Origin: an uncultured Actinomycetota bacterium
GTDB lineage: Bacteria > Actinomycetota > Actinomycetes > Propionibacteriales > Nocardioidaceae
Direction of reading: 5' to 3'
Assembly (NCBI GenBank): GCA_963781475.1
Contig: CAWAGJ010000006.1
Span: 5,580 to 69,579, forward strand
Length of the DNA stretch: 64,000 nt
A model generated the notes under the pieces. It was not told the origin of the DNA. It saw nothing but the letters and a program-made list of their open reading frames with translations, and did no database searches. Positions 3,954 through 59,050 of this stretch are shown one piece after another. The position numbers were made by a program, and so were the translations under genes. Numbering within the stretch: the first letter of the stretch is position 1; each line of letters begins with the position of its first letter.

Positions 3954-3960
3954 GCCCCAC

Positions 3961-4074
3961 CGCGAGCGTCACCTCGGGGCGTCGCCAGCGTCATCTCGGC
4001 CCATTTTCAGCGTCATCTCGGCGGGGTGCCGCCGTCATCTGGGCCGGGCGGGAGTGTCACCTCGGCAGGGCGGG
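3961..4074 (+). repeat. 22-bp phased tandem repeat array A (5 units, GTCAYCTSGG orientation)
   Basis: Cores start at 3968, 3990, 4012, 4034 and 4056, exactly 22 bp apart. The array fills the whole gap between convergent genes ending at 3953 and 4075. Confidence 0.9.
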
Positions 4075-4797
4075 TCAGCCGCAGATCTGGAGCCAGAGGG
4101 TGAAGCGGTCCGCGCGGTAGACGCTGCGGGAGACCTCGACGACCTTCTCGTCGGCCACGGCGCGGCGCGAGTGGCGCAGCACCACCGAGCCGGGCTCGAC
4201 CTCGAGCAGGCCCGCCTCCTCGACGCCGGCGACGTCGGCGGTGATCGAGTCCTCCGCCCAGGTCGGGCGCAGGCCGCGGGTGCCGAGGTCGGCGTACAGG
4301 CTGGTGGGCATGCCGCGCTGCAGGAAGCCGGGCAGCAGGATCTCGGTGAGGTAGGCGTCCTCGATGCAGACCGCGGTGCCGTCGCCGCGGCGCAGGCGGC
4401 GCCAGTGGATGACCGGGTCGCCCTCGGTCAGGCTCAGCGCCCGGGCGACACCGGGGCCGGCCTGCTCGCGGCGCGCCAGCAGCGTCTGCGACTCGGCGAG
4501 GACGCCGCGGCGGCGCAGGTCCTCGGTGAACCCGGTGATCCGGCCACGGTTGCGCTGGGGACGGGCCACGAAGGTGCCCCGCCCGGGGATCCGCTCGAGG
4601 ATGCCCTCGGTGACCAGCGTGTCCAGGGCCTGCCGCACGGTCATCCGGGCCACGCCGAACATCGCGACCAGCTCGCGCTCGGAGGGGGCGGCCGCGCCGG
4701 GGGCCGCACCGGCCACGAGGTCGCGGACGTACTCCCGCACCTGGACGTGCTTCAGGGCCCGGCCGTCGGAGCGGTGCTCGGTGGTGGTCTCGGTCAC
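4075..4797 (-). CDS. GntR-family transcriptional regulator, HutC subfamily (wHTH + UTRA)
   Basis: ORF 4075..4797. SERELVAMFGVARMTVRQALDTLVTEGILERIPGRGTFV is a GntR HTH. The C-terminal part is UTRA-like. Confidence 0.9.
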   Translation of the reverse strand: MTETTTEHRSDGRALKHVQVREYVRDLVAGAAPGAAAPSERELVAMFGVARMTVRQALDTLVTEGILERIPGRGTFVARPQRNRGRITGFTEDLRRRGVLAESQTLLARREQAGPGVARALSLTEGDPVIHWRRLRRGDGTAVCIEDAYLTEILLPGFLQRGMPTSLYADLGTRGLRPTWAEDSITADVAGVEEAGLLEVEPGSVVLRHSRRAVADEKVVEVSRSVYRADRFTLWLQICG

Positions 4798-29587: not shown

Positions 29588-30725
29588 GGGCCAGCACCTC
29601 CACCAGCTCCGAGAAGGTGGCCAGGGAGTGCCCGGCGAGGAAGTCGTCCACGTGGGGCAGCACCGCCAGCACGCCGGCCTGCACCGGCTCGTAGCCGTCC
29701 TTGCCCCGGTGCGGGTTCACCCACACCACGCGGTGCGACACCCGCCGCAGCCGGCGCACCTGCTCGCCCAGCAGCCGGCAGTCGCCCCGCTCCCAGCCGT
29801 CGCTGAAGATCACCACGACCGAGCCACGGGCCAGGCCGCGCCGGCCCCAGCGGTCGACGAACACCTTGAGCGTCTCGCCCAGGCGGGTCCCGCCGGACCA
29901 GTCCGAGACGGCGTCCCCGGCGGCGACCAGCGCCCGCTCGGGGTCGCGCAGCCGCATCGCGCGGGTCAGGTGGGTCAACCGGGTGCCGACGGTGAAGGTC
30001 TCGACCCGCCCGCCCCGGGCGGCGAGCACGGTGGTGGTGCGGTGGGCCAGGCGCAGGAGCGCGTCGGCGTACCCGCTCATCGAGCCGGAGACGTCGACCA
30101 GCAGCACCACCCGGCGGGGCTTGGTGGTCCGGCGCCGCCACACGATCTCGGTCGGCTCGCCGAGGCGGCGCAGGCTGGCGCGCAGGGTGCGCGAGGCGTC
30201 GACCTCACCGCGGTGCCAGCGCTGGTGGCGCGCGGTGCGCCGACGCGGAGGGCGCGGCTGGAGGGTGGCGAACATCGCCGCCAGGCGGCTCTTCTCCCCC
30301 GCGTCGAGCGTGGCGACGTCGCGGTGACGCAGCACCTCGGCCCCGCTGGCCTTGGCCCGCACCACGTCGTCGTCCTCCTCGCCGGCCCCGCCGCCGGCGG
30401 GGTCGTCGAGCGGCAGCGTGGTCGGCACGGGCTGGGAGGCCGGGGACGCGGCCCTGGCGCGGGGCAGGCCGGCGCGGTGGTCGAAGAACGCCTCGAAGAC
30501 CTGGTCGTAGCGGTCGAGGTCGTCGGGCGAGCCGCACAGCGTGGCGCGTCCGGCGGCGTAGGTCGCCGACACGTCGTCGAGCCCGACCACCGCCGTCGCG
30601 GCCAGGAACGTCTGGGAGCGGTCGGAGGTGACCGGGACCCCCGCCGCGCGGAGCGCGGTGGTGAAGGCGAGCAGCACCTCGTCGGGGCCGTGGCCCAGCA
30701 GCCCGGCGCTGATCGAGACGGTCAT
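29580..30725 (-). CDS. coxE: CoxE-like VWA-domain protein
   Basis: ORF 29580..30725. CoxE N-terminus (LLAFTTALRAAGVPVTSDRSQTFL) and MIDAS VDVSGSM. Overlaps coxD by 4 nt. Confidence 0.9.
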   Translation of the reverse strand: MTVSISAGLLGHGPDEVLLAFTTALRAAGVPVTSDRSQTFLAATAVVGLDDVSATYAAGRATLCGSPDDLDRYDQVFEAFFDHRAGLPRARAASPASQPVPTTLPLDDPAGGGAGEEDDDVVRAKASGAEVLRHRDVATLDAGEKSRLAAMFATLQPRPPRRRTARHQRWHRGEVDASRTLRASLRRLGEPTEIVWRRRTTKPRRVVLLVDVSGSMSGYADALLRLAHRTTTVLAARGGRVETFTVGTRLTHLTRAMRLRDPERALVAAGDAVSDWSGGTRLGETLKVFVDRWGRRGLARGSVVVIFSDGWERGDCRLLGEQVRRLRRVSHRVVWVNPHRGKDGYEPVQAGVLAVLPHVDDFLAGHSLATFSELVEVLARA

Positions 30726-31621
30726 GCGCGCATCACCTGGTCGAGCGCGTGACGCACCTTGTCGGCGTCCTCCCGGTACTTCACCAGGGCGCCCAGGGTG
30801 GCCGCGGACGTCTCGAGGTCGAGCTCGGTGGCGCCGAGGTGGGCCAGCGCCCGCGCCCAGTCGAGGGTCTCGGCCACGCCCGGCGGCTTCTCCAGGTCGT
30901 CGCGGGCGCGCAGGTCCTGGACGAGGGAGACGACCTGACGGGCCAGCACCTGACCGATCTCGGGCGCCCGGGACCGCATGATCTCCACCTCGCGCTCGAG
31001 ACCCGGGTGGTCGATCCAGTGGTACAGGCAGCGCCGCTTCAGCGCGTCGTGCAGCTCACGGGTCCGGTTGGAGGTCAGCACCACCAGCGGCGGCTCGGCC
31101 GCGGCGACCGTGCCGAGCTCGGGGATCGAGACCCGGTAGGTCGACAGCACCTCCAGCAGGAAGGCCTCGAACTCGTCGTCGGCGCGGTCCACCTCGTCGA
31201 CCAGCAGCACCGCGGGGCTCTGCTGGAGCGCGGCCAGGATCGGGCGCGCCAGCAGGAAGCGCTCGTCGTAGAGGCTCTTCTCGGCCTCCTCCACGCCGCT
31301 GTCCGCCCCGGCGGCCTCGAGGGCGCGCAGGTGGAGGACCTGGCGCGGGAAGTCCCAGTCGTACAGCGCCTGGCTGGCGTCGATCCCCTCGTAGCACTGC
31401 AGCCGCACCAGCGGCAGCCCGAACGACTCGGCGAGCGCCTCGGCCAGGGCGGTCTTGCCGGTGCCCGGCTCGCCCTCGAGCAGCAGCGGGCGCTGCATCC
31501 GTACGGCCAGGAACGCCACCGTCGCCAGCTCGGGGTCGGCGAGGTAGCCCGTCGCACCCAGGCGCGCGGCCATCGAGGCCGGGGACAGGTCCGGGGAGGA
31601 CGCGAGTGTCACCATGGTCAC
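30722..31621 (-). CDS. coxD: CoxD/MoxR-like AAA+ ATPase
   Basis: ORF 30722..31621 (GTG start; in-frame ATG two codons later). Walker A GEPGTGKT, Walker B LLVDEVDRA, and RLQCYEGIDASQALYDWDF. Confidence 0.92.
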   Translation of the reverse strand: MTMVTLASSPDLSPASMAARLGATGYLADPELATVAFLAVRMQRPLLLEGEPGTGKTALAEALAESFGLPLVRLQCYEGIDASQALYDWDFPRQVLHLRALEAAGADSGVEEAEKSLYDERFLLARPILAALQQSPAVLLVDEVDRADDEFEAFLLEVLSTYRVSIPELGTVAAAEPPLVVLTSNRTRELHDALKRRCLYHWIDHPGLEREVEIMRSRAPEIGQVLARQVVSLVQDLRARDDLEKPPGVAETLDWARALAHLGATELDLETSAATLGALVKYREDADKVRHALDQVMRA

Positions 31622-31649: not shown

Positions 31650-31705
31650 TTGGTCACCCGCCGAGGTGACGCCCGCAACGCATCGAGGTGACGCTCGCGG
31701 CGCGG
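31650..31705 (+). repeat. 22-bp repeat array F (2 units, GAGGTGAC orientation, plus an abutting inverted half-unit)
   Basis: Cores CCGAGGTGAC at 31661 and TCGAGGTGAC at 31683 (22-bp spacing). GGTCACC at 31653 forms GTCACC-N6-GGTGAC with the first core. Confidence 0.7.
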
Positions 31706-31757: not shown

Positions 31758-32135
31758 GTGAGCACGCCCGAGCCGAAGACCTGCGCGTCCTGCGGGCGCA
31801 CCATCGAGTGGCGCAAGAAGTGGGAGCGCGACTGGGACCAGGTGCGCTACTGCTCCACGGCGTGCCGCAAGCGGGGTGTGAGCAGGACCGACGAGGCGCT
31901 CGAGCAGAGCATCCGCGACCTGCTCGCCGCCCGGTCCCGCGGCAGCACCATCTGTCCCTCCGACGCGGCCCGGGCGGTCGGTCCGGCCGAGGACGAGGGG
32001 TGGCGCGAGCTGATGGAGCCGGCGCGCCGGGCCGCGCGCCGGATGGTGGCCGCCGGGGAGGTGGTCGTCACCCAGGGCGGCCGGGTCGTCGACCCGTCGA
32101 CGGCGAAGGGCGCGATCCGCATCCGTCGGGCCTGA
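31758..32135 (+). CDS. DUF2256 zinc-ribbon + DUF3253 fusion protein
   Basis: ORF 31758..32135. [29 protein letters not shown] is the DUF2256 signature. ...[10 protein letters not shown]....[28 protein letters not shown]....GAIRIR is DUF3253-like. Confidence 0.8.
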
Positions 32136-35205: not shown

Positions 35206-35942
35206 GAGAACGCCCGGTCGTAGAGGGCGCGCCGGCGCGGGTCGGCCTCGCCGCTGAAGCCGCAGAGCGTGACCGAGCCGCCGGACGCCGAGACCAGGTA
35301 GCTGCTGCCCTCGGTGAACTCGGGGGCCAGCAGCAGCCCGCGCAGGCGGTCGTCGACGGGGTCGACCTCGACGGTCGCGGCGTCCCCGCCGCGGAACCAG
35401 GTGCCGACACTGAAGGTGAGCGCCTCGTCGGTGGCCTCGACCAGGGTCCCCTCGAAGGCGAGGTCCTGGTTCTGCAGGACGCCGACGTCGGGGACCATGC
35501 ACCGCGCCCCGGCGGCGTCGGCGTCCGGCAGGGCCAGCCGGACGACGTCGGTGGGCGCGTCGGTGGGCGCGTCGGGGGGCCCGTCGGTGGTCGCATCGGG
35601 GTCGGTGGTGGGGGTGGTGCTGGTGGGCGCGCCGGCCGTGGTCCCGGCGACCTCCTCCGGCCCGCTGAGCGCGCGGACCCCCGCCCATCCTGCCCCGGCG
35701 ACGACCAGGACGGCCGCCGCGGCCCCGACCCAGGCCAGGGGGTGCCGGTGCCGGGTGCCGGCCTCGCGGGTGGCGTGCCCGTCGGGGGTGCGGTGCGGGT
35801 CGTGCTCGGTCATGGCGGCCTCCAGGGAGCGGGTGCGCTCGGCGTCGGTCAGGGGCGGCAGGGCGCGGACCGGGTCGGCGGCGCGGAGCAGCGCGCGCAG
35901 CCCGTCCCGGTCGTCGTGGTCGCGGTCGTGCTCGTCGGTCAT
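35202..35942 (-). CDS. putative anti-sigma factor / membrane protein downstream of ECF sigma
   Basis: ATG at 35942 (MTDEHDRDHDD...) in ORF 35202..36650. Single TM (LAWVGAAAAVLVVAGAGWAGV) and a Thr/Pro/Asp-rich linker. ATGA overlap with the sigma gene stop. Confidence 0.65.
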   Translation of the reverse strand: MTDEHDRDHDDRDGLRALLRAADPVRALPPLTDAERTRSLEAAMTEHDPHRTPDGHATREAGTRHRHPLAWVGAAAAVLVVAGAGWAGVRALSGPEEVAGTTAGAPTSTTPTTDPDATTDGPPDAPTDAPTDVVRLALPDADAAGARCMVPDVGVLQNQDLAFEGTLVEATDEALTFSVGTWFRGGDAATVEVDPVDDRLRGLLLAPEFTEGSSYLVSASGGSVTLCGFSGEADPRRRALYDRAFS

Positions 35943-36478
35943 CGGTCCTCCCCCGTCGTGCTCCCATGTCCGGCACCGGCGTCGTCGTGTCGCGCCAGCT
36001 CGGCGGCGAGCCGGGACCGGGCGCGGACCAGCCGGGAGGACACCGCGTTGGGCGTCGTGCCGAGCACGACCGCGATCTCGCGGGGTGCCAGCTGCTCCCA
36101 GGCCCAGAGCCGCAGCACCTCCGCGTCGGTGGGTGGCAGCGCGGCCAGCGCGGGTCCGACCCGGTCCGCGCGCGGGTCGGCCGGTCCCGGGTCGGTCCGG
36201 GCGGTCGGCGGCGGGTCGAGGACCGCCACCCGGGCCGCGAGGCGCCGTCGGCGACGGGCGGACCGGTCGGCGTTGGCCAGGCAGTGCCGCGCGACCGCGT
36301 ACGCCCAGGGCAGCGCCCCCTCCCCCGCCGGCAGCGCGTCCCGCCGCCGCCAGAGGACCAGCAGGGTCTCGGCGAGCACGTCCTCGGCGGTGTCGGGGTC
36401 GGTCCGGCGCACCAGGAACCGCCGCAGCGGCTCCAGCAGCGGTCCTACCCGGGCCTCGAACCCGTCGCCGCCCACCAC
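35939..36478 (-). CDS. ECF (group 4) RNA polymerase sigma factor
   Basis: ORF 35939..36628 trimmed to GTG at 36478 (VVGGDGFEARVGPLLEPLRRFL...). Region 2 (AEDVLAETLLVLW) and region 4 HTH (LAPREIAVVLGTTPNAVSSRLVRARSRL). The longer N-terminus reads through repeat array B (..VMSAGWERHLGG..), so I rejected it. Confidence 0.85.
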   Translation of the reverse strand: MVGGDGFEARVGPLLEPLRRFLVRRTDPDTAEDVLAETLLVLWRRRDALPAGEGALPWAYAVARHCLANADRSARRRRRLAARVAVLDPPPTARTDPGPADPRADRVGPALAALPPTDAEVLRLWAWEQLAPREIAVVLGTTPNAVSSRLVRARSRLAAELARHDDAGAGHGSTTGEDR

Positions 36479-36495
36479 CCGACCACCCTGGCACA

Positions 36496-36563
36496 GCCCG
36501 CCGAGATGACGCTCCCAGCCGGCCGACATGACGCTCGCAGCGCCCCGAGATGACACTTGCGGG
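36496..36563 (+). repeat. 22-bp repeat array B, left arm (3 units, GAGATGAC orientation)
   Basis: Cores at 36501 (CCGAGATGAC), 36523 (CCGACATGAC) and 36545 (CCGAGATGAC), exactly 22 bp apart. Confidence 0.9.
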
Positions 36564-36618
36564 CGCCTGCCGGCCCGTGGTCGCGTACGCACGGCGACCT
36601 GCCGGCGACGGCCCCACA

Positions 36619-36732
36619 CAGCCGTCATCTCGACCCCACGCGACCGTCATCTCGGCCCTGCGCGACCGTCATCTCGGCCCTGCGCGGCCGTCATCTCGGC
36701 GGTGCGCGGCGGTCATCTCGGCGGTGCGGGGG
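36619..36732 (+). repeat. 22-bp repeat array B, right arm (5 units, GTCATCTCG orientation)
   Basis: GTCATCTCG cores at 36624, 36646, 36668, 36690 and 36712, exactly 22 bp apart. Units 2 and 3 are identical (ACCGTCATCTCGGCCCTGCGCG). Confidence 0.95.
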
Positions 36733-36827
36733 CCGGCGTCCCCGGGTGTCCCCCACAATGGGCCGTGCCGACGCTCCCCGGGGTGCGCCGGTGCCCCTGG
36801 TCCCCCGGAGCATGAGGAGCGTGGCCG

Positions 36828-37862
36828 ATGTCGCTCGCCAGCACCCGTCCCGCCACCGACCTCCGCACCACGGCCCCGCTGGACGAGGACGACCTGGCCG
36901 GTGCCGCGGAGGTGCTGGGACGCATCACCACCGCCTTCGCCAGCCGCGTCGTGGGGCAGGAGCGGCTGCGTACCGCGCTGCTGGTGGCCCTGATGGCCGA
37001 GGGGCACCTGCTGGTCGAGAGCGTGCCCGGGCTGGCCAAGACCCTGGCGTCCTCGACGCTCGCCGAGGCCGTGGGGGCCTCCTTCAACCGCATCCAGTGC
37101 ACGCCGGACCTGCTGCCCAGCGACATCGTCGGCACCCAGGTCTACGACCCGCGCCACCACACCTTCACCACCCAGCTCGGCCCCGTGCACGCCCACGTCG
37201 TGCTGCTGGACGAGATCAACCGGGCCAGCGCCAAGACGCAGTCGGCGATGCTGGAGGCGATGCAGGAGCGGCAGACCTCGATCGCCGGGGAGGTCCACCC
37301 GCTGCCCCGTCCCTTCCTGGTCCTGGCCACCCAGAACCCGCTGGAGGAGGAGGGCACCTACGTGCTGCCCCAGGCGCAGCTCGACCGGTTCCTGCTCCAG
37401 GAGGTGCTCGACTACCCCACGGCCGCCGAGGAGGTCGGCGTGCTGGACCGCGTGGACTCCGGCACGCTCGGGCGCGAGACGAGCCCCGTCGCCGCGGTGG
37501 TCGGTCCGGGTGAGGTGGAGGCGCTGCAGGCCCTGGTGGACCGGGTCTACGTCGACCCGGCCGTGCGCCGCTACATCGTCGACGTGGTCGGCGGCACCCG
37601 TGCGGTCGGCCGCCTCGTGGGCCCCGAGCTGGGCGCCTACGTCGAGACCGGCGCCAGCCCGCGCGCCTCGATCGCCTTCTTCCAGGTCGCCCGCGCGCTG
37701 GCGGTGCTGCACGGTCGTCACTACGTCGTGCCCGAGGACGTGCGCGAGATGGCCCACGGGGTGCTGCGGCACCGGCTGCACCTCTCCTTCGAGGCCGTGG
37801 CCGACCGGGTGCGCCCCGAGGTCGTCGTCGACGCGGTCCTCGCGGCCGTACCGACCCCCTGA
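36828..37862 (+). CDS. MoxR-family AAA+ ATPase (AAA_3 type)
   Basis: ORF 36828..37862, with GAGGAG upstream of the ATG. Walker A-like ESVPGLAKT, Walker B VLLDEINRA, ATQNPLEEEGTY.LP.AQLDRF. Confidence 0.93.
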   Translation: MSLASTRPATDLRTTAPLDEDDLAGAAEVLGRITTAFASRVVGQERLRTALLVALMAEGHLLVESVPGLAKTLASSTLAEAVGASFNRIQCTPDLLPSDIVGTQVYDPRHHTFTTQLGPVHAHVVLLDEINRASAKTQSAMLEAMQERQTSIAGEVHPLPRPFLVLATQNPLEEEGTYVLPQAQLDRFLLQEVLDYPTAAEEVGVLDRVDSGTLGRETSPVAAVVGPGEVEALQALVDRVYVDPAVRRYIVDVVGGTRAVGRLVGPELGAYVETGASPRASIAFFQVARALAVLHGRHYVVPEDVREMAHGVLRHRLHLSFEAVADRVRPEVVVDAVLAAVPTP

Positions 37863-37871
37863 CCCGCGTCG

Positions 37872-38783
37872 GTGACCGCCCTCGTCCCCCGGGTCCAGGC
37901 CCGGCTGGCCCTGCCCGCGCACCGGCTGGTGCGCGGGATGCTCGAGGGCGGGTACGCCGCGGTGCACACCGGCCGCGGCATCGAGCTGGCCGACCTGCGG
38001 CCCTACGTGCGCGGCGACGACCCCAAGGACCTCGAGCCGAAGGCCTCCGCGCGCAGCGGGGAGCTGCTGGTCAAGCGGTACGTCGCCGACCGGCGTCACA
38101 CCGCCCTGCTGGTGGTGCCCACCGGCCGGTCGATGGCCGCCCACCGGCGACCCGGACCCGACGGCACCGCCGCCGACGCGACCACCAAGCGCGACCTCGC
38201 CGCCCTGGTCGCCGGTCTGGTCGGCTGGCTCGCGGTACGCCACGGCGACGCGGTCTCCCTGGCCCACGGCGACGCCGACGGTCACCACGTGCTGCGCCCG
38301 GCCGGCGGGGCCGCCCACCTCGAGCGGTGCCTGCAGGCCGCCCACGCCGCGACCACGCCCGACGCCGCCCCCACCGACCTCGTCGGACTGCTGCAGCACG
38401 TGGCCCGCACCGTGCGCCGCCGCACGATCCTGCTCGTGGTCTGCGACGACGAGGACGCCTCCCCCGCCCTGCTGGGCGTGCTGCGGCGCCTGGTCGCCCA
38501 GCACGAGGTGCTGGTCGCGGGCATCGGCGAGCTCGACCCGACCGCCCCCGACCTGCGCGGGAGCACCTGGGACCTCGACGCCGGTGCGCCCCTGCCCGCC
38601 TGGGTCCGCCGCGACCGGCGGCTGACCGCCGAGCACGCCGCCGCCACGGGCGTGCGCACCCGGGCCCTGGCCGACGTCGCCGCGGCGGCCGGGGCCTCCT
38701 TCGAGCGGGTCGGCGACCAGGACGACGCCGTCCGGGCCGTGCTGCGCCTGCTGGAGAGGCACCGGCGTGGCCGCCGTCGCTGA
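37872..38783 (+). CDS. DUF58 domain-containing protein (MoxR partner)
   Basis: ORF 37872..38783 with GTG start. GIELADLRPYVRGDDPKDLEPKASARSGELLVKRY is the DUF58 signature. Confidence 0.88.
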   Translation: MTALVPRVQARLALPAHRLVRGMLEGGYAAVHTGRGIELADLRPYVRGDDPKDLEPKASARSGELLVKRYVADRRHTALLVVPTGRSMAAHRRPGPDGTAADATTKRDLAALVAGLVGWLAVRHGDAVSLAHGDADGHHVLRPAGGAAHLERCLQAAHAATTPDAAPTDLVGLLQHVARTVRRRTILLVVCDDEDASPALLGVLRRLVAQHEVLVAGIGELDPTAPDLRGSTWDLDAGAPLPAWVRRDRRLTAEHAAATGVRTRALADVAAAAGASFERVGDQDDAVRAVLRLLERHRRGRRR

Positions 38784-39264
38784 GCTGGTCGCCGCCCAGG
38801 ACGTCGCCGGCCCGGTCGGGTACGGCGTGCCGTGGGCGCTGCTCGCCGCCGGCGCCGTCGTGCTGGTGCTCGTCTACTACGCCGTGGTGCTCGCGGCGAC
38901 CCGCCCGCGACGTCCCGCCGGCGACGGGGGGCGGCCGGTCGCGGCGCGCGCCCGGCGTACCGCCCGCGAGCTGGCCCTGGCCCGCCTCGACGAGGTCGGT
39001 GCCGCCGTCGCCGCCGGACGCACCTCGCCCCGGGCCGGCCACCTGGAGGTCAGCGACGCCGTCCGCGCCTACCTGGCGGCCGTGACCGGCCGCCCGGCGA
39101 GGGTGATGACCCTGGCCGACGCGCGACGCGACGGCCCGGAGGAGCTCGCGGCGCTGCTCGCGGAGGTCTACCCGCCCGAGTTCGCCCCCGGCGAGGCCCT
39201 GGCGCGGGACCGGTTCGCCGGCTCCCTCGCGGGCGCCCGGGGCCTGGTGACGACGTGGGGCTGA
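38767..39264 (+). CDS. small membrane protein of the Bat-like operon (DUF4381-like)
   Basis: ORF 38767..39264. One TM (VPWALLAAGAVVLVLVYYAVVLA). Overlaps the DUF58 gene by 17 nt and the next gene by 10 nt. Confidence 0.6.
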   Translation: MAAVAELVAAQDVAGPVGYGVPWALLAAGAVVLVLVYYAVVLAATRPRRPAGDGGRPVAARARRTARELALARLDEVGAAVAAGRTSPRAGHLEVSDAVRAYLAAVTGRPARVMTLADARRDGPEELAALLAEVYPPEFAPGEALARDRFAGSLAGARGLVTTWG

Positions 39265-41378
39265 TCGACCTGCAGCGCCCCGAGGAGCTGGCCTGGCCGG
39301 TCGTGCTGCCCGGGACGGCCGTCGCGGTGGCGCTCCTGCTCGGGTGGTGGGCCTGGCGGGTCCGGCGGTCGCGCCGTCCGGCACGGACCGGACGGACCGA
39401 CCCCGTGCTGGCCGCGCACGTCGCCCGGCTGCGGGCGCTGCCGCGCCACCGGGTGCTGGCGCGGCGCCGGCGCCTGCTCGGTGCGCTGCTGGCGGTGGGC
39501 TCGCTGGTCGCGGTGGCCGGCGCCGCGGTCGTGGTGGCGCGACCGCAGGTCGAGCGGACCGAGCGGGGCGAGGAGCGCAGCCGCGACATCATGCTGTGCC
39601 TGGACGCCTCCGCGTCGATGGACGACGACAACGTCGAGGTGGTGCGCGCGGTCCGCGACGTGGTCGACGGCCTCGAGGGCGACCGGGTCGGGCTGACGCT
39701 GTGGAGCGGCGCCGCGGTGACGGTGTTCCCGCTGACCGAGGACCGCGCCTACGTCCTGGACCAGCTCGCCGTCGCGGAGCGGGCGTTCGCGCGGGGCGAC
39801 GAGTCGTACTTCGCCGGGGTCCAGCTGTCCGACCCGCGGGCCTCCCTGATCGGGGACGGCCTGGTCTCCTGCGCGCAGCGCTTCGACCGGCCGGAGGAGG
39901 AGCGGGCCCGTGCGGTCGTGCTGTCCTCCGACAACAAGCCCCTCGGCCAGTCGGTCTACGACCTCGACACGGCCGCGGCCTACGCCGCCCGCCGCGACGT
40001 CCTCGTCTACGCCGTCGGCGCCCCGGACCTCGCCGGGTCGGGACGGGTCGCCGCCCGGGAGGAGCTGGCCGGGGCCGCGGAGGCCACCGGTGGGCTGCTC
40101 GCCCTGGTCGGCGACGACCGTGACGCCGAGACCGTCGTGGAGCGGATCGACGCGCTCGAGCGGGCCCGGGTGGACCTGCCGCCCCGGACCGTGCGGGCCG
40201 ACGCCCCGGGGTGGGCCGCGGCGGTCGCGGGTGCCGGGGTGCTGCTGGTCGTGCTGGCCTGGCTGGTGGGCGCGGCGCTCGCCCTCGGTGACCGGGTGGC
40301 CGGACGCCGCACCCGGGCGGACCGGACGGACCGGACGGCCCCGACGGCCCCGACGGCCCCGGACGGCCCCGACGGCCCCGACGGCCCCGACGGGTGGCGG
40401 GCGATGAGGCGCGCGGCGGTCCTGGTGCTGACCGGCCTGCGGCGGGCGCTGCTGCTCGGCGTGCTGGCGGCGCTGCTGCTCGGGGTCGGTGACGTGACCG
40501 CCTCCGACCAGACCCGTCTGCCCGCGCTCGAGGTGGTCGTCGCCGTCGACCGGACCACCTCGATGGCCGCCGAGGACGACCCGGCGGGCTCGCGGATGGT
40601 GGCGGCCCGGGCCGACGTCGGCGCCCTGGCCGAGGCGCTGCCGTCGGCGCGCTTCTCCGTGGTCGCCTTCGGCGCGCGGGCCGAGGTGGAGCTGCCCCCC
40701 ACGACCGACCGGGTGGCGCTGGGCGCCGAGCTCGCGGCGCTCCGACCGGAGGCACCGACGACCGGGGCCGGCTCCGCGCTGGCGCGCCCGGTACCCCTGC
40801 TGGCCGGGGTGCTCGGCGGCGCGGAGGACCGGGCGGCCGCCGGGCCGGCGGGGTCACCGGGCCCGGCGCCCCGGCAGGTGCTGGTCGTGCTCAGCGACGG
40901 CGAGGACACCGCCCCGGGACCGGCCGGGTCGTGGGCGGCGCTGGCCGGCTCCACCGACGCGGCGCTCGTGCTCGGCTACGGCACCCCGGGGGGCGGGACG
41001 ATGCCGCTGCCCGACGGCACCGGGCCGGTGACCGACCCCGCGACGGGAGCACCCGCGGTGTCGCGGCGCGACGACGCCGCGCTGGCCCGGATCGCCGACG
41101 AGGTCGGCGGCGACTACGTCCCGCGCACCGGGGCCGCCGGTGCCGCGCCGACCGATGCGGCGACCGATACGGCGATCGACGCGGCGGCGGGCCGGCTGCG
41201 GGGAGACGCGTACGCCGACCTGCCCGGCGCGGTCCCCGGTCGCCAGGCCGGCTGGGTCTGGGGCGCGCTGCTCCTGCTGCTGGTGCTGCCCGAGCTGCGC
41301 CTGGGCTGGCGTCGGTGGCTGGAGGGCCGCCACGAGACCCGGCTCGGTCGCGCCGCGCGACAGGCGGTGTCCCGGTGA
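39255..41378 (+). CDS. fused double VWA-domain membrane protein (BatA-like + BatB-like in one frame)
   Basis: GTG at 39255 in ORF 38832..41378. First VWA has MIDAS LCLDASASM and a C-terminal TM. Repeat linker RTDRTDRTAPTAPTAPDGPDGPDGPDG. Then a second N-terminal-looking TM (MRRAAVLVLTGL...) and a second VWA (VAVDRTTSM). An in-frame ATG lies at 40404. Confidence 0.8.
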   Translation: MGLIDLQRPEELAWPVVLPGTAVAVALLLGWWAWRVRRSRRPARTGRTDPVLAAHVARLRALPRHRVLARRRRLLGALLAVGSLVAVAGAAVVVARPQVERTERGEERSRDIMLCLDASASMDDDNVEVVRAVRDVVDGLEGDRVGLTLWSGAAVTVFPLTEDRAYVLDQLAVAERAFARGDESYFAGVQLSDPRASLIGDGLVSCAQRFDRPEEERARAVVLSSDNKPLGQSVYDLDTAAAYAARRDVLVYAVGAPDLAGSGRVAAREELAGAAEATGGLLALVGDDRDAETVVERIDALERARVDLPPRTVRADAPGWAAAVAGAGVLLVVLAWLVGAALALGDRVAGRRTRADRTDRTAPTAPTAPDGPDGPDGPDGWRAMRRAAVLVLTGLRRALLLGVLAALLLGVGDVTASDQTRLPALEVVVAVDRTTSMAAEDDPAGSRMVAARADVGALAEALPSARFSVVAFGARAEVELPPTTDRVALGAELAALRPEAPTTGAGSALARPVPLLAGVLGGAEDRAAAGPAGSPGPAPRQVLVVLSDGEDTAPGPAGSWAALAGSTDAALVLGYGTPGGGTMPLPDGTGPVTDPATGAPAVSRRDDAALARIADEVGGDYVPRTGAAGAAPTDAATDTAIDAAAGRLRGDAYADLPGAVPGRQAGWVWGALLLLLVLPELRLGWRRWLEGRHETRLGRAARQAVSR
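40319..40393. repeat. 9-bp coding tandem repeat (GACGGCCCC / GGACCGGAC variants)
   Basis: ggaccggacggaccggacggccccgacggccccgacggccccggacggccccgacggccccgacggccccgac. In frame, it forms the linker between the two VWA halves. Confidence 0.85.
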
Positions 41379-42127
41379 GCGGGCGGTCCGCGGGCCGGGA
41401 GGCGTGGCGTCGGCGCCTGCTGCTGCTCGGGACCGTGCCGGCGCTGGCCGCGGCCGGGTTCGCCGTGGAGGTCGCGGTCGTGCTGCACCACGACGCGCAG
41501 GGTCGGGCCGCGCTGGAGGACGGCGAGCCCGCCCGCGCCGCGGAGTCGTACGCCGCGAACCGGTCGCTGAACCTGCTCGAGCCGTGGGTGGCGCCGTACG
41601 ACGAGGCCACCGCCCGCTTCCGCGCCGGCGACCCCGCCGGGGCCGTCCGGGGCTACGCCGACGCGCTGCCGCTGGCGCCTGCGGCGCGGGAGTGCCGGGT
41701 GCGCACCGACCTCGCCCTGGCCCACGGCGCCGTGGCGGCGCTCGCCACCACCGCCGACGACCCGGGGTCGGCCCGCAGGGCGCTCGCGCGGGGCGTCGCC
41801 GCGCTGGCCGACTGCCCGAGCACCGACGACCGGGCCGCCGAGGTGCTCTCGACGCTGCAGGACGACCAGGCCGCGTCCGACGGGACCGACGAGCAGGCCG
41901 GGTCGCCGGACGGACCGCCCGACGGGCCGCCGCAGGGACCCCCGGACGACTCGCCGGGTCAGGGCGAGGCGGCCGGGCAGCAGCAGGAGCTGGGCGAGCG
42001 CAACGACCGCGGCCGGGAGAAGCGGCAGCGGGCCGAGGACCGGGCCGACGGGACGGGGCTCGCGCGCGGTCCGGGGCAGGGTGACCCGGGCCCGGGCCCG
42101 ACCGGCCCGCCCGCGTACTCCTGGTAG
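41375..42127 (+). CDS. TPR-like protein with Pro/Gly/Asp-rich tail (BatC-like)
   Basis: GTG at 41375 overlaps the upstream stop (GTGA). Frame of ORF 40931..42127. N-terminal TM, then TPR-like helices (EDGEPARAAESYAAN...FRAGDPAGAVRGYADAL). Confidence 0.65.
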   Translation: MSGRSAGREAWRRRLLLLGTVPALAAAGFAVEVAVVLHHDAQGRAALEDGEPARAAESYAANRSLNLLEPWVAPYDEATARFRAGDPAGAVRGYADALPLAPAARECRVRTDLALAHGAVAALATTADDPGSARRALARGVAALADCPSTDDRAAEVLSTLQDDQAASDGTDEQAGSPDGPPDGPPQGPPDDSPGQGEAAGQQQELGERNDRGREKRQRAEDRADGTGLARGPGQGDPGPGPTGPPAYSW

Positions 42128-42258
42128 CCCAGATGACGCTCCCGCACGGCCGAGATGACGGCGGGAGACGGCCGAGATGACGATTCCTCACGGCCAGGCT
42201 CGCGCGCTGCGGCCGCGAGCGTCACCTCGAGGCGCTGCGAGCGTCACCTCGGCGTGGC
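42125..42258 (+). repeat. 22-bp repeat array C (3 units GAGATGAC orientation + 2 units GTCACCTCG orientation)
   Basis: Left cores at 42128, 42150 and 42172. Right cores at 42221 and 42243. All intra-arm spacings are 22 bp. The array starts at the stop codon of the upstream gene. Confidence 0.9.
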
Positions 42259-42293
42259 GACGGCCCGCCCGAGCACTGCTCGGACGGGCCGTC
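42259..42293. terminator. 17-bp-stem hairpin between the Bat-like operon and groEL
   Basis: GACGGCCCGCCCGAGCA-C-TGCTCGGACGGGCCGTC with one mismatch. About 120 nt downstream of the groEL stop. Confidence 0.55.
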
Positions 42294-42300
42294 TGGTCAC

Positions 42301-42347
42301 GCTGTGGTGCTGGTGCTGCTGGTCGAGCTGTGGTGCTGGTGCTGCTG
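42301..42347. repeat. 21-bp direct repeat x2 (period 26) downstream of groEL
   Basis: GCTGTGGTGCTGGTGCTGCTG at 42301-42321 and 42327-42347. Followed by GGGCCTGAC x2 near 42376. Confidence 0.75.
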
Positions 42348-42412
42348 CTCACGCAGCGGCGGGACCCTGCGAGTCGGGCCTGACGGGCCTGACGGCCCTG
42401 CTCAGGTCAGGC

Positions 42413-44053
<1,641 letters not shown>

Positions 44054-45528: not shown

Positions 45529-46830
45529 TCAGGCGATGCCGGTGGCGACGAACGCGGCGTACGACGGGGCGATCGTGGCGGCCGGACCGACGTGGTCGGC
45601 GACCGCGTCGAGGGTCTTCAGACCCATCCCGGTGTTGATCACCACGGTCTCGGCGTCGGGGTCCAGCTGGCCGGTCTCGACCAGCTTCTTCAGCACGCCG
45701 ACCGTGGTGCCGCCGGCGGTCTCGGTGAAGATGCCCTCGGTGCGCGCCAGCAGCAGGATGCCCTGGCGCACCTCGTCGTCGGTGATGTCCTCGACCGCGC
45801 CGCCGGTGGAGCGGCAGACGTCGAGGACGTAGATGCCGTCAGCAGGGTTGCCGATGGCCAGGCTCTTGGCGATGGTGTCCGGCTTGACCGGGCGGATCGC
45901 GTCGACGCCGTCCTTGAAGGCGACCGAGACCGGCGAGCAGCCGGTGGCCTGGGCGCCGAAGATCTTCACCGGCTTGTCCTCGACCAGGCCGAGGCGGACC
46001 AGCTCGCCGAAGGCCTTGTGCACCTTGGTCAGCTGGGAGCCGGACGCGACCGGGATGACGACCTGGTCGGGCAGCCGCCAGCCGAGCTGCTCGGCGATCT
46101 CGTAGCCCAGGGTCTTGGAGCCCTCGGCGTAGAACGGGCGGACGTTGACGTTCACGAACGCCCAGCCGTCCTCCTCGCCGGCGATCTCGGAGGCGAGCTT
46201 GTTGACGTCGTCGTAGTTGCCGTCGACGGCGACCAGCTGCTCGGTGTAGACCGCCGAGTTGACCTGCTTGGGCTTCTCGAGGTTGCTGGGGATGAAGACC
46301 ACGGTCTTGATCCCGGCCCGGGCGCCGGCGGCGGCCACGGCGTTGGCCAGGTTGCCGGTCGAGGGGCAGGCGAAGACCTTGGCCTTGAACTCGGTCGCGG
46401 CGCTCAGCGCGCAGGCCACGACGCGGTCCTTGAAGGAGTTGGTGGGGTTGGTCGAGTCGTCCTTGACCCACAGGTTGCTCAGGCCGAGCTCGCGACCGAG
46501 GTTGCCGGCCCGGAGCAGCCGGGTGAAGCCGGGCTCCATGTTCGGGCTCTGCTCGATGTCGTCGGGCACCGGCAGCAGCGCCTTGTAGCGCCAGATGTTG
46601 CGCGGGCCGGCCTCGATCTCCTCGCGGGTCACGGCCGGGAAGTCGTAGGCCACCTCGAGGGGCCCGAAGCACTGCGGACACGCGTAGTGCGGGCCGAGCT
46701 CGACCTCGTGGCCGCACTCGCGACAGCTCAGTCCGGTGGCGTTGCCGAACGCGCGCTCGCGCAGTCCGGTCGTCCCACCGTTCGTGGCGGGGTCGGGGAC
46801 CCCGGTCTTCTCGGCAGTCAGGGCGCTCAT
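45529..46830 (-). CDS. threonine-synthase-family PLP enzyme with N-terminal zinc ribbon (ThrC/MetM-like)
   Basis: ATG at 46830, preceded by GAGGAGGAGG, in ORF 45529..46896. CRECGHEVELGPHYACPQCFG zinc ribbon. PLP-lysine motif NPTNSFKDR. GNLANA and IPVASGS. Confidence 0.92.
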   Translation of the reverse strand: MSALTAEKTGVPDPATNGGTTGLRERAFGNATGLSCRECGHEVELGPHYACPQCFGPLEVAYDFPAVTREEIEAGPRNIWRYKALLPVPDDIEQSPNMEPGFTRLLRAGNLGRELGLSNLWVKDDSTNPTNSFKDRVVACALSAATEFKAKVFACPSTGNLANAVAAAGARAGIKTVVFIPSNLEKPKQVNSAVYTEQLVAVDGNYDDVNKLASEIAGEEDGWAFVNVNVRPFYAEGSKTLGYEIAEQLGWRLPDQVVIPVASGSQLTKVHKAFGELVRLGLVEDKPVKIFGAQATGCSPVSVAFKDGVDAIRPVKPDTIAKSLAIGNPADGIYVLDVCRSTGGAVEDITDDEVRQGILLLARTEGIFTETAGGTTVGVLKKLVETGQLDPDAETVVINTGMGLKTLDAVADHVGPAATIAPSYAAFVATGIA

Positions 46831-46843
46831 GAGAAACCTCCTC

Positions 46844-46999
46844 CTCATCTTCCCCGGGCGGCTTTCGCACCGGGACGGAGTTAGCACCGTTTCCACGATC
46901 CGACTGCGCGCCGTCCGGGATCGGACGGTCCGCTGGGCGGAGGCTCGTGGCGGTTGCCGGGACTTCGACGGGCCGTTCCCTCAGTCCCTCTTGATGAGC
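46844..46999 (-). promoter_or_regulatory. SAM-I (S-box) riboswitch
   Basis: The minus strand reads GCTCATCAAGAGGGACTGAGGGAACGGCCCGTCGAAGTCCCGGCAACC...GGTGCTAACTCC...GAAGATGAGGAGG. This matches the conserved S-box blocks CUUAUCAAGAG..GAGGGA..GGCCC..GAA..CCGGCAACC, GGUGCUAAUUCC and AAGAUAAG. The 3' P1 strand GAUGAG abuts or overlaps the SD. Confidence 0.88.
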
Positions 47000-47118
47000 T
47001 GTGCTCGACAGTACAGGCCGTCGTCTCAGCATGCGTCACCCCGTACCACGATGCGGACGTGTAGCCCGGGGACTGTGCTGGCTCGCAGGGCACCCTCACC
47101 GCCGGCCGGGTGGCGTCG

Positions 47119-54507: not shown

Positions 54508-55026
54508 TCAGGGGGCGGGCGGTGCGAAGGCGTACTGCTCGACGGGCTCCCACGGCCCGCCGACGTAGCGCCAGACCGCGAGCGCCTCGGCGGTCGCGGT
54601 GAACGGGCGGAAGGCGGCCCGCAGGTCCGTCACCGTGGCGCGGGCGACGTCGGGGTCGACCTTGTTCTGGACCGTGACGTGCGGGCGCAGCGGCTGACGG
54701 TCCTGCCTGGTCAGGTCCTCCCACCAGGCGCGCTGCAGCGCGGCGTGCAGGGCGGCGAGCTCGGGGCTGTCCACCCGGTACGCCGCGCCCCGGCCCAGCG
54801 CCATCACCTCGCTGACGGGCAGCCCGAACCGTGGCCGGTCCGCCTGCGCCCGCACCTGCGCACGGACGTCGTCGAGCCGCGCGCCCGGGACCGCGTGGAA
54901 CAGCGTGAGGTGCGCGCCGACCGCGGTCCGCCCGGGCGGGAAGAGCGCGGCCCGCTCGGCCTCGAACCGGGCGGTGGTCTCCTCGTCGAGCACCAGGGTG
55001 ACGACCAGCGGGGGCGGCAGCGTCAC
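54508..55026 (-). CDS. 2H-phosphoesterase / 2'-5' RNA ligase superfamily protein
   Basis: GTG at 55026 in ORF 54508..55182. Two HxT motifs (HLTL and HVTV). Confidence 0.8.
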   Translation of the reverse strand: MTLPPPLVVTLVLDEETTARFEAERAALFPPGRTAVGAHLTLFHAVPGARLDDVRAQVRAQADRPRFGLPVSEVMALGRGAAYRVDSPELAALHAALQRAWWEDLTRQDRQPLRPHVTVQNKVDPDVARATVTDLRAAFRPFTATAEALAVWRYVGGPWEPVEQYAFAPPAP

Positions 55027-55098: not shown

Positions 55099-55145
55099 TG
55101 CATGACGGCAACCTAGGCCGACCTCGGGCGGGGGTGCCTCGCCCT

Positions 55146-55257
55146 TCGCCGAGATGACACTCGCGCACGGCCCAGATGACACTCGCGCGCAGCCGAGATG
55201 ACACTCGCGCGCAGCCGAGATGACACTCGCGCGCGGCCGAGGTGACGGGTGCGGACA
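55146..55257 (+). repeat. 22-bp repeat array D (5 units, GAGATGAC orientation)
   Basis: Cores at 55149, 55171, 55193, 55215 and 55237, exactly 22 bp apart. Units 3 and 4 are near-identical (GCCGAGATGACACTCGCGCGC). Confidence 0.95.
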
Positions 55258-55988: not shown

Positions 55989-55996
55989 GATCCGTC

Positions 55997-56063
55997 CGCG
56001 AAGGTCATCTGGGCCGGGCGCGAGCGTCATCTGGGCCGTGCGCGAGCGTCATCTCGGCCGGGG
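55997..56063 (+). repeat. 22-bp repeat array E (3 units, GTCATCTSGG orientation)
   Basis: Cores at 56004, 56026 and 56048, exactly 22 bp apart. The array begins 9 nt after the ung stop. Confidence 0.9.
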
Positions 56064-58897: not shown

Positions 58898-58977
58898 CTG
58901 ACCTGCAGAGATCCAGCCGGTCCTGCGAGCGTTCCTGGGTTGTGCCTGTCGGTGTACGACCGAGCAGGCGCTCGTCG

Positions 58978-59050
58978 AGCCGGTGACAGGAGTCGAACCC
59001 GCGACATCCTCTTTACAAGAGAGGCGCTCTACCTACTGAGCTACACCGGC
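58978..59050 (-). tRNA. tRNA-Thr (anticodon UGU)
   Basis: The minus strand reads GCCGGTG-TA-GCTC-AGTAGGTA-GAGC-G-CCTCT-CTTGTAA-AGAGG-ATGTC-GCGGG-TTCGACT-CCTGT-CACCGGC-T. Cloverleaf with a 7-bp acceptor stem and TGT in the anticodon loop. The T-stem has two G-U pairs. No encoded CCA. Confidence 0.88.

Follow-up and report, generated by a model that had tools for sequence, protein, structure and literature searches.

A 64,000-nucleotide stretch of DNA from an uncultured bacterium of the Nocardioidaceae (GenBank assembly GCA_963781475.1, contig CAWAGJ010000006.1, positions 5,580 to 69,579; here called the window) carries tandem arrays of a 22-bp unit in its intergenic regions. These arrays belong to a dispersed, non-coding intergenic repeat family that is specific to one Nocardioides clade, made up of the organism of the window, Nocardioides aquaticus, Nocardioides sp. 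AX2bis and related metagenome-assembled genomes (MAGs). Each unit resembles a single arm with its CGTC tag from a known class of repetitive extragenic palindromic (REP) sequences; the units are joined head-to-tail, and as such look like an unusual variant of ordinary selfish or neutral DNA. On the whole, the family is probably a REP-derived, non-palindromic interspersed repeat that was dispersed as a 66-bp triplet in the clade ancestor, tolerated mainly at gene ends and inherited vertically, and that is decaying and changing in steps of 22 bp. The arrays are called 'half-REP' arrays here because the tag and arm module is repeated head-to-tail and not closed into a palindrome. A dedicated cellular function need not be invoked for them.

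Phased arrays and the 66-bp element

Units were detected by the core CCGAGATGAC, with at most two mismatches and a same-strand neighbour at 22 bp. This search returned the same 28 units that had been reported in an earlier reading of the window made from its letters alone (the original prediction), arranged as eight arrays at six intergenic sites (Table 1), and the exact 22-bp phasing claimed there was found in 20 of 20 adjacent unit pairs. In the exemplar, array C, the cores start at 36501, 36523 and 36545 on the + strand and at 36624, 36646, 36668, 36690 and 36712 on the - strand. With one mismatch or fewer the core occurs 39 times in the window compared to 7.1 +/- 2.9 times in shuffled sequences. 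Same-strand cores exactly 22 bp apart form 20 pairs, compared to a mean of 0.05 and a maximum of 1 in 100 shuffles, and every other distance from 15 to 30 bp is represented by 0-1 pairs each. Similarly, Tandem Repeats Finder reported a period of 22 at the exemplar and at 42127-42260, 55148-55246 and 55997-56062, and a profile built from 37 related elements matches only these arrays in the window at E<0.01. The window has a G+C content of 74.6% and is 86% coding by the gene calls used here; the intergenic location that had been claimed is borne out, with 1 of 616 array bases inside a called gene.

One genome per species was scanned with two phased cores, and the figures that follow refer to the matches listed. 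They comprise at least 20 loci across the 3.96-Mb AX2bis scaffold, at least 19 contigs of a Propionibacteriales MAG and at least two further Nocardioidaceae MAGs; the loci compared were picked for carrying arrays, and the Nocardioides DNA covered came to ~420 kb. Shared genes of the window and the scan-matched genomes are 82-94% identical, the uracil-DNA glycosylase (UDG) protein of the window is 91% identical to that of N. aquaticus, and the organism of the window is a Nocardioides close to N. aquaticus. In N. aquaticus, AX2bis and the related MAG, the repeat takes the form of a discrete element of 66 bp in which three 22-bp units follow in a fixed order, with the consensus sequences U1 = GCCGAGATGACGCTCGCGGACA, U2 = GCCGAGATGACGCTCGCGGCGC and U3 = sTCGAGgTGACGrTTsCGGmsm. 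The original prediction had set enrichment and phasing outside the window as a test, and the repeat is indeed abundant in these sister genomes, being far more regular in AX2bis and the MAG than in the window. Thirty-seven three-unit copies from at least four genomes can be aligned without gaps at 92% mean identity and with unit types specific to each position, and the family must therefore have dispersed as a 66-bp unit. Exactly three units are present in 35 of the 55 arrays of AX2bis and the MAG, and the window arrays, with 2-5 units, have decayed or expanded from the 66-bp element.

These findings bear directly on the simplest alternative, that each array is an independent minisatellite formed by local slippage, with the core shared by coincidence or through base composition. 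Such an account would fit the variable unit number, and also the units of single window arrays, which are more alike than units of different arrays (array E). As an origin of the family, however, it is refuted by the same ordered U1-U2-U3, 92% identical, at dozens of unrelated sites in several genomes, and by the excess of phased pairs over the shuffles. Slippage accounts for the changes in unit number only.

Relationship to the CGTC-tagged REP superfamily

A survey by Di Nocera, De Gregorio and Rocco (2013; PMC3733652) describes a superfamily of REPs with an unpaired CGTC tag, or its variants TGTC and CCTC, at one end of the unit, a stem of 8-9 bp that opens with complementary AT, and a loop of 4-5 nt. 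The superfamily is reported there from Proteobacteria, Chlorobi, Bacteroidetes, Spirochaetes and Thermotogae, includes the dRS3/NIME repeats of Neisseria and the RPE-4/RPE-6 repeats of Rickettsia, and is 'apparently lacking a dedicated transposase'. Its members lie near the 3' ends of open reading frames (ORFs), those between convergent genes at most 20 bp from both ORF ends and unidirectional ones near the end of the upstream ORF, and their termini donate stop codons. Dimers are mostly head-head, with the tags outside; the 'TT' type is rare and head-tail dimers are negligible.

On its other strand, the Nocardioides core reads CGTC|AT|CTCGGC, that is, a tag, AT and one stem arm, the complement of unit positions 9-12 being CGTC. 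Position 12, which was not selected for in the search, is G in 84 of 93 AX2bis units, 68 of 74 MAG units and 20 of 28 window units, and A, giving a TGTC tag, in 6 of the 28 window units; both variants are named in the survey. The tag is followed by AT in U1 and U2 and by AC in most U3 units, and the complementary arm is missing.

The comparison with the superfamily has two sides. Shared features are the tag with its TGTC variant, followed by AT and a G+C-rich arm; high copy number; an intergenic position a few bp from ORF 3' ends, with convergent and unidirectional gene pairs preferred; and stop codon donation. A dedicated transposase was not seen among the array neighbours in the ~420 kb of Nocardioides DNA covered. 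Furthermore, complete REPs with an identical arm and tag (CGAGATGACA/G) carry tandem arm and tag copies in many phyla. In contrast, the arrays have neither the 8-9-bp palindromic stem nor the 4-5-nt loop, the units are direct 'HT' repeats in an ordered 66-mer, and Actinobacteria, to which their hosts belong, is missing from the five phyla of the survey. The family works like, and probably descends from, the CGTC REP superfamily without being a regular member of it. The earlier remark that the repeat was not recognised as a described family was only half right: the core is the tag and arm of a described superfamily whose gene-end placement and stop donation it shares, which bears on one of the refuting conditions named in the original prediction, a match to a REP-type family already described. 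Literature searches with 10-14-mers returned unrelated primers only, and no description of the repeat by sequence was found there or in Rfam.

A complete hairpin counterpart of the core would read CGTC-AT-CTCGGC...GCCGAGAT. In other phyla, a conserved leader, gAGATCTCTCnCTnCGnT, stands before CGAGATGAC(A) units, and its ATCTC pairs with GAGAT of the first unit; among the matches listed, such loci come from Desulfobulbaceae, Bacteroidales, Prevotella, Chlorobi, Treponema, proteobacteria, Parcubacteria and Chloroflexota. A 5-bp AT-initiated stem followed by GAC was found in 126 hairpins of these cross-phylum loci compared to 5.4 in shuffles, and the stems co-vary (ATCTC/GAGAT 62, ATTTC/GAAAT 38, ATGCT/AGCAT 10, in addition to ATGTC/GACAT, ATCCC/GGGAT and others). 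The consensus, GAG-ATNNN-TC-(inner stem)-TC-N'N'N'AT-GACAG, gives on the other strand a TGTC/CGTC tag, an AT-first stem, a short loop and a tail, which is the definition of a CGTC REP in the survey (PMC3733652). The CGAGATGAC(A/G) module forms the 3' arm and tag of these complete hairpins in other phyla. These hairpins lie in convergent (24), co-oriented (15), anti-oriented (13) and divergent (8) gene contexts, a pattern like that of the Nocardioides arrays.

The hairpins are often followed by head-to-tail copies of their own 3' arm and tag, for example in loci L031 (1440-2100), L050 (3130-3450), L054 (3160-3290) and L091 (7330-7450) and in the metagenome loci L113, L116, L122, L134, L148 and L167. 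This layout of a REP plus a half-REP array was not met in the consulted sections of the 2013 survey (PMC3733652). A universal 22-bp period was considered and rejected: it had appeared because the first scan fixed the gap at 13 nt, and in a metagenome scan with a variable gap of 3-33 nt, 22 bp accounted for 8 of 173 adjacent pairs among the matches listed. Arrays linked to hairpins have periods of 17, 18, 20, 21, 22, 25, 27, 28 and 39 bp (17-28 or ~40 bp, and up to ~42 bp overall), and given this broad distribution the general pattern is a complete REP with head-to-tail copies of its 3' arm and tag at a lineage-specific period. The Nocardioides family shares its 22-bp period with some others, and this period is not a conserved constraint. 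An array of CGAGATGAC in locus L010 (Paratractidigestivibacter) closes with a long perfect palindrome, TACTTTGACGAAAAATTCTCTAGAGAATTTTTCGTCAAAGTA, and an abiF RNA motif (RF03085, 52.7 bits) is present at 2058-2095, ~370 nt upstream of this array.

Gene context and folding of the arrays

The placement of the arrays resembles that of CGTC REPs as given in the survey. Outside called genes lie 63 of the 65 arrays. Of the intergenic regions between convergent genes, 21 of 52 hold an array, compared to 20 of the 156 between tandem genes and 6 of the 48 between divergent genes. When the array is subtracted, at most 16 bp remain in 13 of the 21 convergent regions, compared to 8 of 31 array-free convergent regions that are this short. 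Stop codons abut both array ends, the TGA of the first core is the stop of the upstream ORF in nine cases, a role that the TGA of the second unit has in one orthologous pair. As 22 equals 1 modulo 3 and each core holds a TGA, an array of three units closes every reading frame on one strand and leaves every frame of the opposite strand open. In tandem gene contexts, nine arrays are co-oriented and 12 anti-oriented.

Folding depends on whether both orientations are present at a site. Folding is no better than that of shuffles for the canonical 66-mer (z = +1.0), its complement (+1.1), array E (-0.4) or a single unit (-0.4/0.0), and the mini-palindrome CGAG-N6-CTCG that had been pointed out within each unit gives no significant structure. 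The long hairpin anticipated from the inverted arms is, however, well supported, with -150.8 kcal/mol and z = -5.7 for 36485-36740; the arms of array C are 70-73% complementary over 64 nt. The unique centre of this array had been put at about 55 nt, but measures 47 bp between unit boundaries and 69 bp between cores, and it has no similarity to the sequence after the orthologous array in AX2bis or the MAG. The last unit of array E pairs with the downstream sequence CACCTCGG. The orientation rule proposed originally, with the GAGATGAC arm on the left and the GTCATCTC arm on the right, is true in the window and in all six close doublets (three genomes), each of which runs + then -. Arms meet in the opposite order at one place only, in AX2bis (L089 3889-4262), where a whole inverted doublet (+3 units, -2 units) has been duplicated in tandem with a 224-bp period and the two copies join. 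The suggested likeness to bacterial interspersed mosaic elements (BIMEs) or foldback elements pointed in the right direction. BIMEs alternate REP orientation, whereas the Nocardioides arrays are purely direct.

These observations allow an RNA-level role to be weighed, in which the arrays act in 3' untranslated regions (UTRs) as terminators, as stabilisers against 3' exonucleases, as processing sites or as translation-stop modules. REPs are generally thought to act in this manner, according to the survey (PMC3733652), and the enrichment at gene 3' ends a few bases from stop codons, the TGA strand that stops all frames and the strong folding of inverted doublets would all fit. Nevertheless, such a role is improbable. 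Arrays show no orientation preference in tandem contexts, most are single-orientation and lack a significant fold, and several lie between divergent genes and so outside any 3' UTR (arrays C and E lie between divergent genes, and array B adjoins the start of one). Moreover, U-tract terminators were not detected in 36000-43000, where a consensus scan found neither promoters nor terminators, and Rfam 15 gave nothing at the arrays or at the cross-phylum loci at the gathering threshold or at E <= 5. No tRNA or riboswitch was found at the window arrays. Anti-Shine-Dalgarno pairing (GAGGTGA in U3) and a 15-codon ATG...TGA mini-ORF over three units were also considered and dropped in view of the unconserved spacers and the unbiased orientation.

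Table 1. Coordinates of the repeat arrays and the bracketed gene block in the window, with unit numbers at orthologous sites in related genomes
Feature	Position	Strand	Units	Context	Orthologous site
Array A	3957..4066	-	5	Fills gap between stop of ORF 3597-3953 (+) and stop of GntR/UTRA regulator gene 4075-4797 (-), convergent	MAG 3 (L016 4713-4778)
Array B	31660..31703	+	2	Between start of AAA ATPase gene 30722-31621 (-) and DUF2256/DUF3253 gene 31758-32135 (+)	AX2bis 3 (L029 7709-7774)
Array C, left arm	36500..36565	+	3	Upstream of divergent ECF-type sigma factor gene 35939-36478 (-); profile 54 bits, E = 2.5e-15	AX2bis 4 (L029 2797-2884); MAG 3 (L075 1433-1498)
Array C, unique centre	36566..36612	.		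Between the two arms
Array C, right arm	36613..36722	-	5	Inverted units; upstream of MoxR gene 36828-37862 (+)
MoxR / DUF58 / VWA gene block	36828..42127	+		Lies between the right arm of array C and the left arm of array D; Pfam and annotation of L106
Array D, left arm	42127..42192	+	3	Stop codon TAG of ORF 41375-42127 overlaps first base of array
Array D, right arm	42210..42253	-	2	Followed by hairpin 42259-42293, then 3' end of GroEL (42413-44038, -)	MAG 3 (L075 1080-1145)
Array E	55148..55257	+	5	Nearly identical units with GACA (TGTC) tag variant; between 2'-5' RNA ligase gene 54508-55026 (-) and UDG gene (ATG at 55296)	N. aquaticus 3 (L107 9951-10016)
Array F	55993..56058	-	3	Between UDG stop (55988) and start of PfkB-type kinase gene (56065)	N. 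aquaticus 3 (L107 10772-10837)

The neighbours of the window arrays are unrelated housekeeping genes by Pfam (GntR regulator, ECF sigma factor, MoxR, GroEL, UDG and PfkB-type kinase), and array D sits between convergent genes. A search for an associated gene was negative: 30 proteins neighbouring arrays in three Nocardioides genomes were unrelated housekeeping proteins with no transposase among them, and clustering of ORFs from 60 cross-phylum loci gave no recurrent family. A 'REPtron' was likewise rejected at arrays E and F, as the gene between these inverted arrays codes for a UDG family protein and no transposase, and its orthologues stand in the same place in array-free species. The database protein for UDG in N. 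aquaticus (248 aa, GTG start, L107 10001) begins inside array E; the alignment of orthologues favours a later ATG (window 55296, MSALAGLV...), and the repeat seems to have misled the annotation of this start codon.

Conserved flank signals were not retained as candidates, since the enrichments of CGTACG and CCTAGG in the flanks look like ordinary intergenic or promoter features. Hexamers of the CCTAGG / TAGGTT type, similar to a -10 box, occur 6-8 nt before the start codons of genes diverging from arrays (window 55105-55125; L107 9905-9925; L083 ~4500-4530), which suggests leaderless transcripts with the upstream promoter region abutting or overlapping the first unit. A replication-strand bias in AX2bis was also tried, and no pattern was seen in 20 sampled loci, the origin not being located.

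Evolution at orthologous sites

Conservation in sister genomes had been set as a further test of the original prediction, and arrays are present at the orthologous sites A, B, C, E and F in two to three species. Alignment of orthologous regions, one of the checks it had asked for, gave unit numbers of 2-5 that vary between species (Table 1). Four ~20-kb loci with the same UDG neighbourhood in three more distant Nocardioides assemblies have no arrays, and the array F site is empty in one Nocardioides locus (L108), where it reads TGA-CCC-GGGTTTGCGG. Identity between species is 0.89 for arrays vs 0.90 for other intergenic DNA in one comparison, and 0.71 vs 0.69 and 0.80 vs 0.85 in the two others; the arrays are inherited vertically and diverge about as fast as other intergenic DNA. 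In the lineage of the window, units within an array are more alike than they are to their orthologues (array E; U3 of array F), and units have therefore been turned over in place by homogenisation or amplification. For array E, Tandem Repeats Finder gave 4.5 copies with 92% matches.

Array C marks a three-way synteny breakpoint (window 36500-36722, L029 2524-2884, L075 1080-1498) after the same sigma factor gene and array. Beyond it, the window has the second inverted arm and the MoxR-VWA block, the MAG (L075) has a 290-bp fragment of a PMT_2 glycosyltransferase gene, an inverted arm and GroEL, with the MoxR block absent, and AX2bis (L029) has the full glycosyltransferase gene. The MoxR / DUF58 / VWA block is a variable neighbour of the arrays and lies outside the repeat itself.

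Several points weigh against a REP-derived, largely neutral repeat and should be set beside the evidence for it. Descent from REPs rests on a match of 6-10 nt together with behaviour, because the complete hairpin is absent and single arrays have a 4-bp mini-stem only; the motif [CT]GTCAT would occur by chance in ~2% of random 22-bp units, counting either strand. Complete tagged hairpins are not found beyond chance in the ~420 kb of Nocardioides DNA (hairpin plus GAC, 1 vs 1.4 expected), and the identity of the CTCG arm with the cross-phylum REPs is partly built in because the Nocardioides core served as the query. Orientation also differs, as the units are head-to-tail and six of six close inverted doublets have their tags inward, which is the rare 'TT' type in the survey. 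The gene calls that underlie the placement come from our own heuristic based on third-position G+C (GC3), and agree with the external contig annotation around arrays C and D, where the two were compared. Mobility is deduced from dispersal only because no lineage-specific new insertion or mobilising activity was seen. Finally, a hand count over orthologous arrays gave differences at 10 of 110 positions within the 10-nt core and at 28 of 132 among the remaining 12 positions of the unit, and this conservation of the core, with an exact phase despite strongly diverged spacers, hints at a constraint as in a binding array. Part of the core conservation is ascertainment, because two or fewer core mismatches were required, and part reflects recent duplication in place.

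The last of these points leads to the iteron-like reading, which was already raised in the original prediction on account of the two-turn spacing. In this reading, a host protein (a nucleoid-associated protein, a roadblock or insulator, or a regulator) would bind the 10-11-bp core, with cooperative occupancy of sites spaced by two helical turns along the same DNA face, and the arrays would be kept for separating convergent transcription units or for organising the chromosome. Points in its favour are the exact register in all 20 adjacent pairs despite diverged spacers, the core, for which the hand count gave ~2-3 times less change than elsewhere in the unit when orthologous arrays were compared, the lack of strand bias with respect to transcription and of RNA structure, as a double-stranded DNA site would show, and the arrays that take up the whole intergenic region between many convergent genes. 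However, no candidate protein or recurrent neighbouring gene was found, whole arrays diverge about like other intergenic DNA, and unit number is free to vary from 2 to 5 at orthologous sites. In addition, the contexts are mixed (promoter regions, operon spacers and gene ends), the same gene junctions are array-free in sister Nocardioides species, and related arm and tag arrays elsewhere have periods from 17 to ~42 bp, so that two-turn phasing is no property of the wider family. The iteron geometry as first proposed thus has no direct support, with no associated gene, ordinary divergence of the arrays and no conservation of 22 bp elsewhere, and we regard the iteron-like reading as possible but rather unlikely.

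Comparison with mobile elements and other repeat families

Ends of transposons or boundaries of cassettes are another explanation for direct repeats with inverted arms. The ends of Tn7 and Mu have 22-bp-like sites, with direct repeats within an arm and the arms inverted, and this resemblance was counted for the idea that the arrays are the multi-site ends of a Tn7/Mu/Tn402-type element, with several 19-22-bp transposase sites per end, and that the bracketed MoxR-VWA and UDG blocks are mobile. Consistent with it, U1 terminates in GGACA, which is TGTCC on the complementary strand, the same flanking genes stand in the MAG (L075) without the MoxR block that separates arrays C and D in the window, and + and - arrays flank UDG in two species. 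This explanation is nonetheless very improbable. Most arrays are solitary and of a single orientation, the GGACA end is internal to the element, the blocks consist of housekeeping genes with no transposase or recombinase in or near them, and UDG orthologues are at the same place in array-free species. Terminal inverted repeats with a duplication of fixed length, as expected of Tn7/Mu-type elements or of miniature inverted-repeat elements mobilised by DDE transposases, were not found, and identity between the flanks is not above permuted controls for k = 3-8; the three bases preceding U1 are C-rich. BLAST of plasmid and phage collections gave no match to the arrays, viral contigs gave one match only, and tblastn with YafM and IS200 TnpA query sequences gave no match to a Y1 transposase (E > 0.2) in the loci examined.

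Plasmid iterons, those of R6K being 22 bp long, invite the same comparison. Like them and like Tn7/Mu ends, the arrays consist of ~22-bp direct repeats with a conserved core and, at some sites, inverted arms. Unlike them, they are dispersed over the chromosome at gene ends; neither a rep nor a transposase gene was found next to them, target sites are not duplicated, and plasmid and phage collections gave no match. No array was seen beside a Rep or Par gene on a plasmid or at an origin, as would be expected of a replicon or partition iteron.

Among tandem intergenic repeats, mycobacterial interspersed repetitive units (MIRUs) are ~40-100 bp long and oriented with the operon, and hold small ORFs for translational coupling that overlap the flanking stop and start codons. 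The Nocardioides arrays share with MIRU-type variable-number tandem repeats (VNTRs) an actinobacterial host, an intergenic position, a copy number that varies between relatives and ends that touch or overlap flanking stop codons. They differ in their 22-bp units, in their unbiased orientation (9 vs 12) and in their preference for convergent gene pairs. Pneumococcal BOX elements have the form boxA-(boxB)n-boxC, where boxA and boxC pair into a foldback. The logic of one module that is reiterated variably is shared with the arrays, and also with the cross-phylum REP hairpins and their n arm and tag units, but there is no sequence relation, and the Nocardioides arrays are without a closing module.

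The best-known REPs differ in another respect. GTAG REPs and REPINs are mobilised by RAYT transposases, the replicative unit is an inverted REP doublet that forms a hairpin, and doublets exceed singlets (Bertels and Rainey, 2011; PMC3116915). The Nocardioides family resembles these elements and BIMEs in being a short extragenic repeat with hundreds of copies, vertical inheritance, neutral decay of singlets, tandem clusters and inverted pairs that form long hairpins (PMC3116915). In contrast to the REPIN-RAYT system, its tag is not GTAG and its common form is an array of a single orientation without a hairpin, the ~6 doublets standing against more than 45 solitary single-orientation arrays. A RAYT, a Y1 HUH transposase whose single-copy gene would be flanked by the REPs, was not found in the loci examined.

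Proposed mechanism and significance

For a REP-derived repeat, the following course of events may be proposed. The founder would have been a 66-bp element of three ordered 22-bp units, which a trans-acting activity recognising the tag and arm module could have copied to many intergenic sites in the ancestor of the clade. Copying would have left no target-site duplication, and insertions would have survived chiefly at gene 3' ends, where the TGA-rich strand may limit damage. Whole units have since been gained and lost, presumably by slippage or unequal exchange, and changes in steps of 22 bp would keep the register exact. Inverted pairs of arrays could form a long hairpin or cruciform that might end or stabilise convergent transcripts and promote rearrangement.

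A more specific and tentative proposal, which at present seems doubtful, is that the machinery of CGTC REPs recognises the tag and arm module CGTC-AT-CTCGGC and not the palindrome, and that the 66-bp element is a natural minimal substrate or binding array for it. This proposal arises because the core is better conserved than the spacer and the register is exact, both of which are hints. The Nocardioides lineage may in that case isolate the module recognised in CGTC REPs. If module recognition were true, the hairpin-less arrays would offer a handle on the mobiliser or binder that is missing for a superfamily found in at least six phyla, and a hairpin would not be needed for REP-type repeats to propagate or persist.

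In bacterial genomes, few non-coding features are as common as REP-type repeats. The persistence of a tag and one arm as ordered head-to-tail triplets, in a phylum from which the 2013 survey did not report the superfamily, widens the known forms of REPs. If the arrays are simply relics, they are an ordinary but neat case of decaying selfish DNA. From a practical point of view, the arrays could serve as typing markers of the VNTR type for Nocardioides because unit number varies between species. They also donate stop codons, mark at least one synteny breakpoint and can mislead annotation, as at the UDG start of N. aquaticus.

Other repeats and RNA features

A number of further features were recorded in the window and the compared loci. 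Between array D and the GroEL stop, a G+C-rich hairpin, GACGGCCCGCCCGAGCACTGCTCGGACGGGCCGTC, lies at 42259-42293, and a similar hairpin precedes arrays in L075 and L089; a 26-bp repeat, CTGGTCAAGCTGTGGTGCTGGTGCTG, is present in 2.3 copies in the same interval (region 42259-42351). In AX2bis, a second repeat, GGGCGGYGCCCYGKYGGTCGAGGRGCG..., follows directly after arrays at three places (L026 1777-1840, L026 2006-2070, and L034 beside the array at 3616-3681). Other short tandem repeats adjoin arrays at L001 4196-4260, L088 ~1970-2030 and L046 1555-1620, for example a 15-bp repeat, CGGCCCGTCTCAGTC, in four copies, and the intergenic regions with arrays seem prone to slippage. Elsewhere in the window, a 9-bp repeat, GACGGCCCC, occurs in 7.6 copies inside the VWA gene (40325-40393), and positions 18192-18298 hold a G+C-rich block of 48-bp / 9-bp repeats, GGCGGGCCG. 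A SAM riboswitch (RF00162, 64 bits) was found at 46842-47000 (-), upstream of the gene at 45529-46653 (-), and a tRNA-Thr with the anticodon TGT at 58977-59050 (-).

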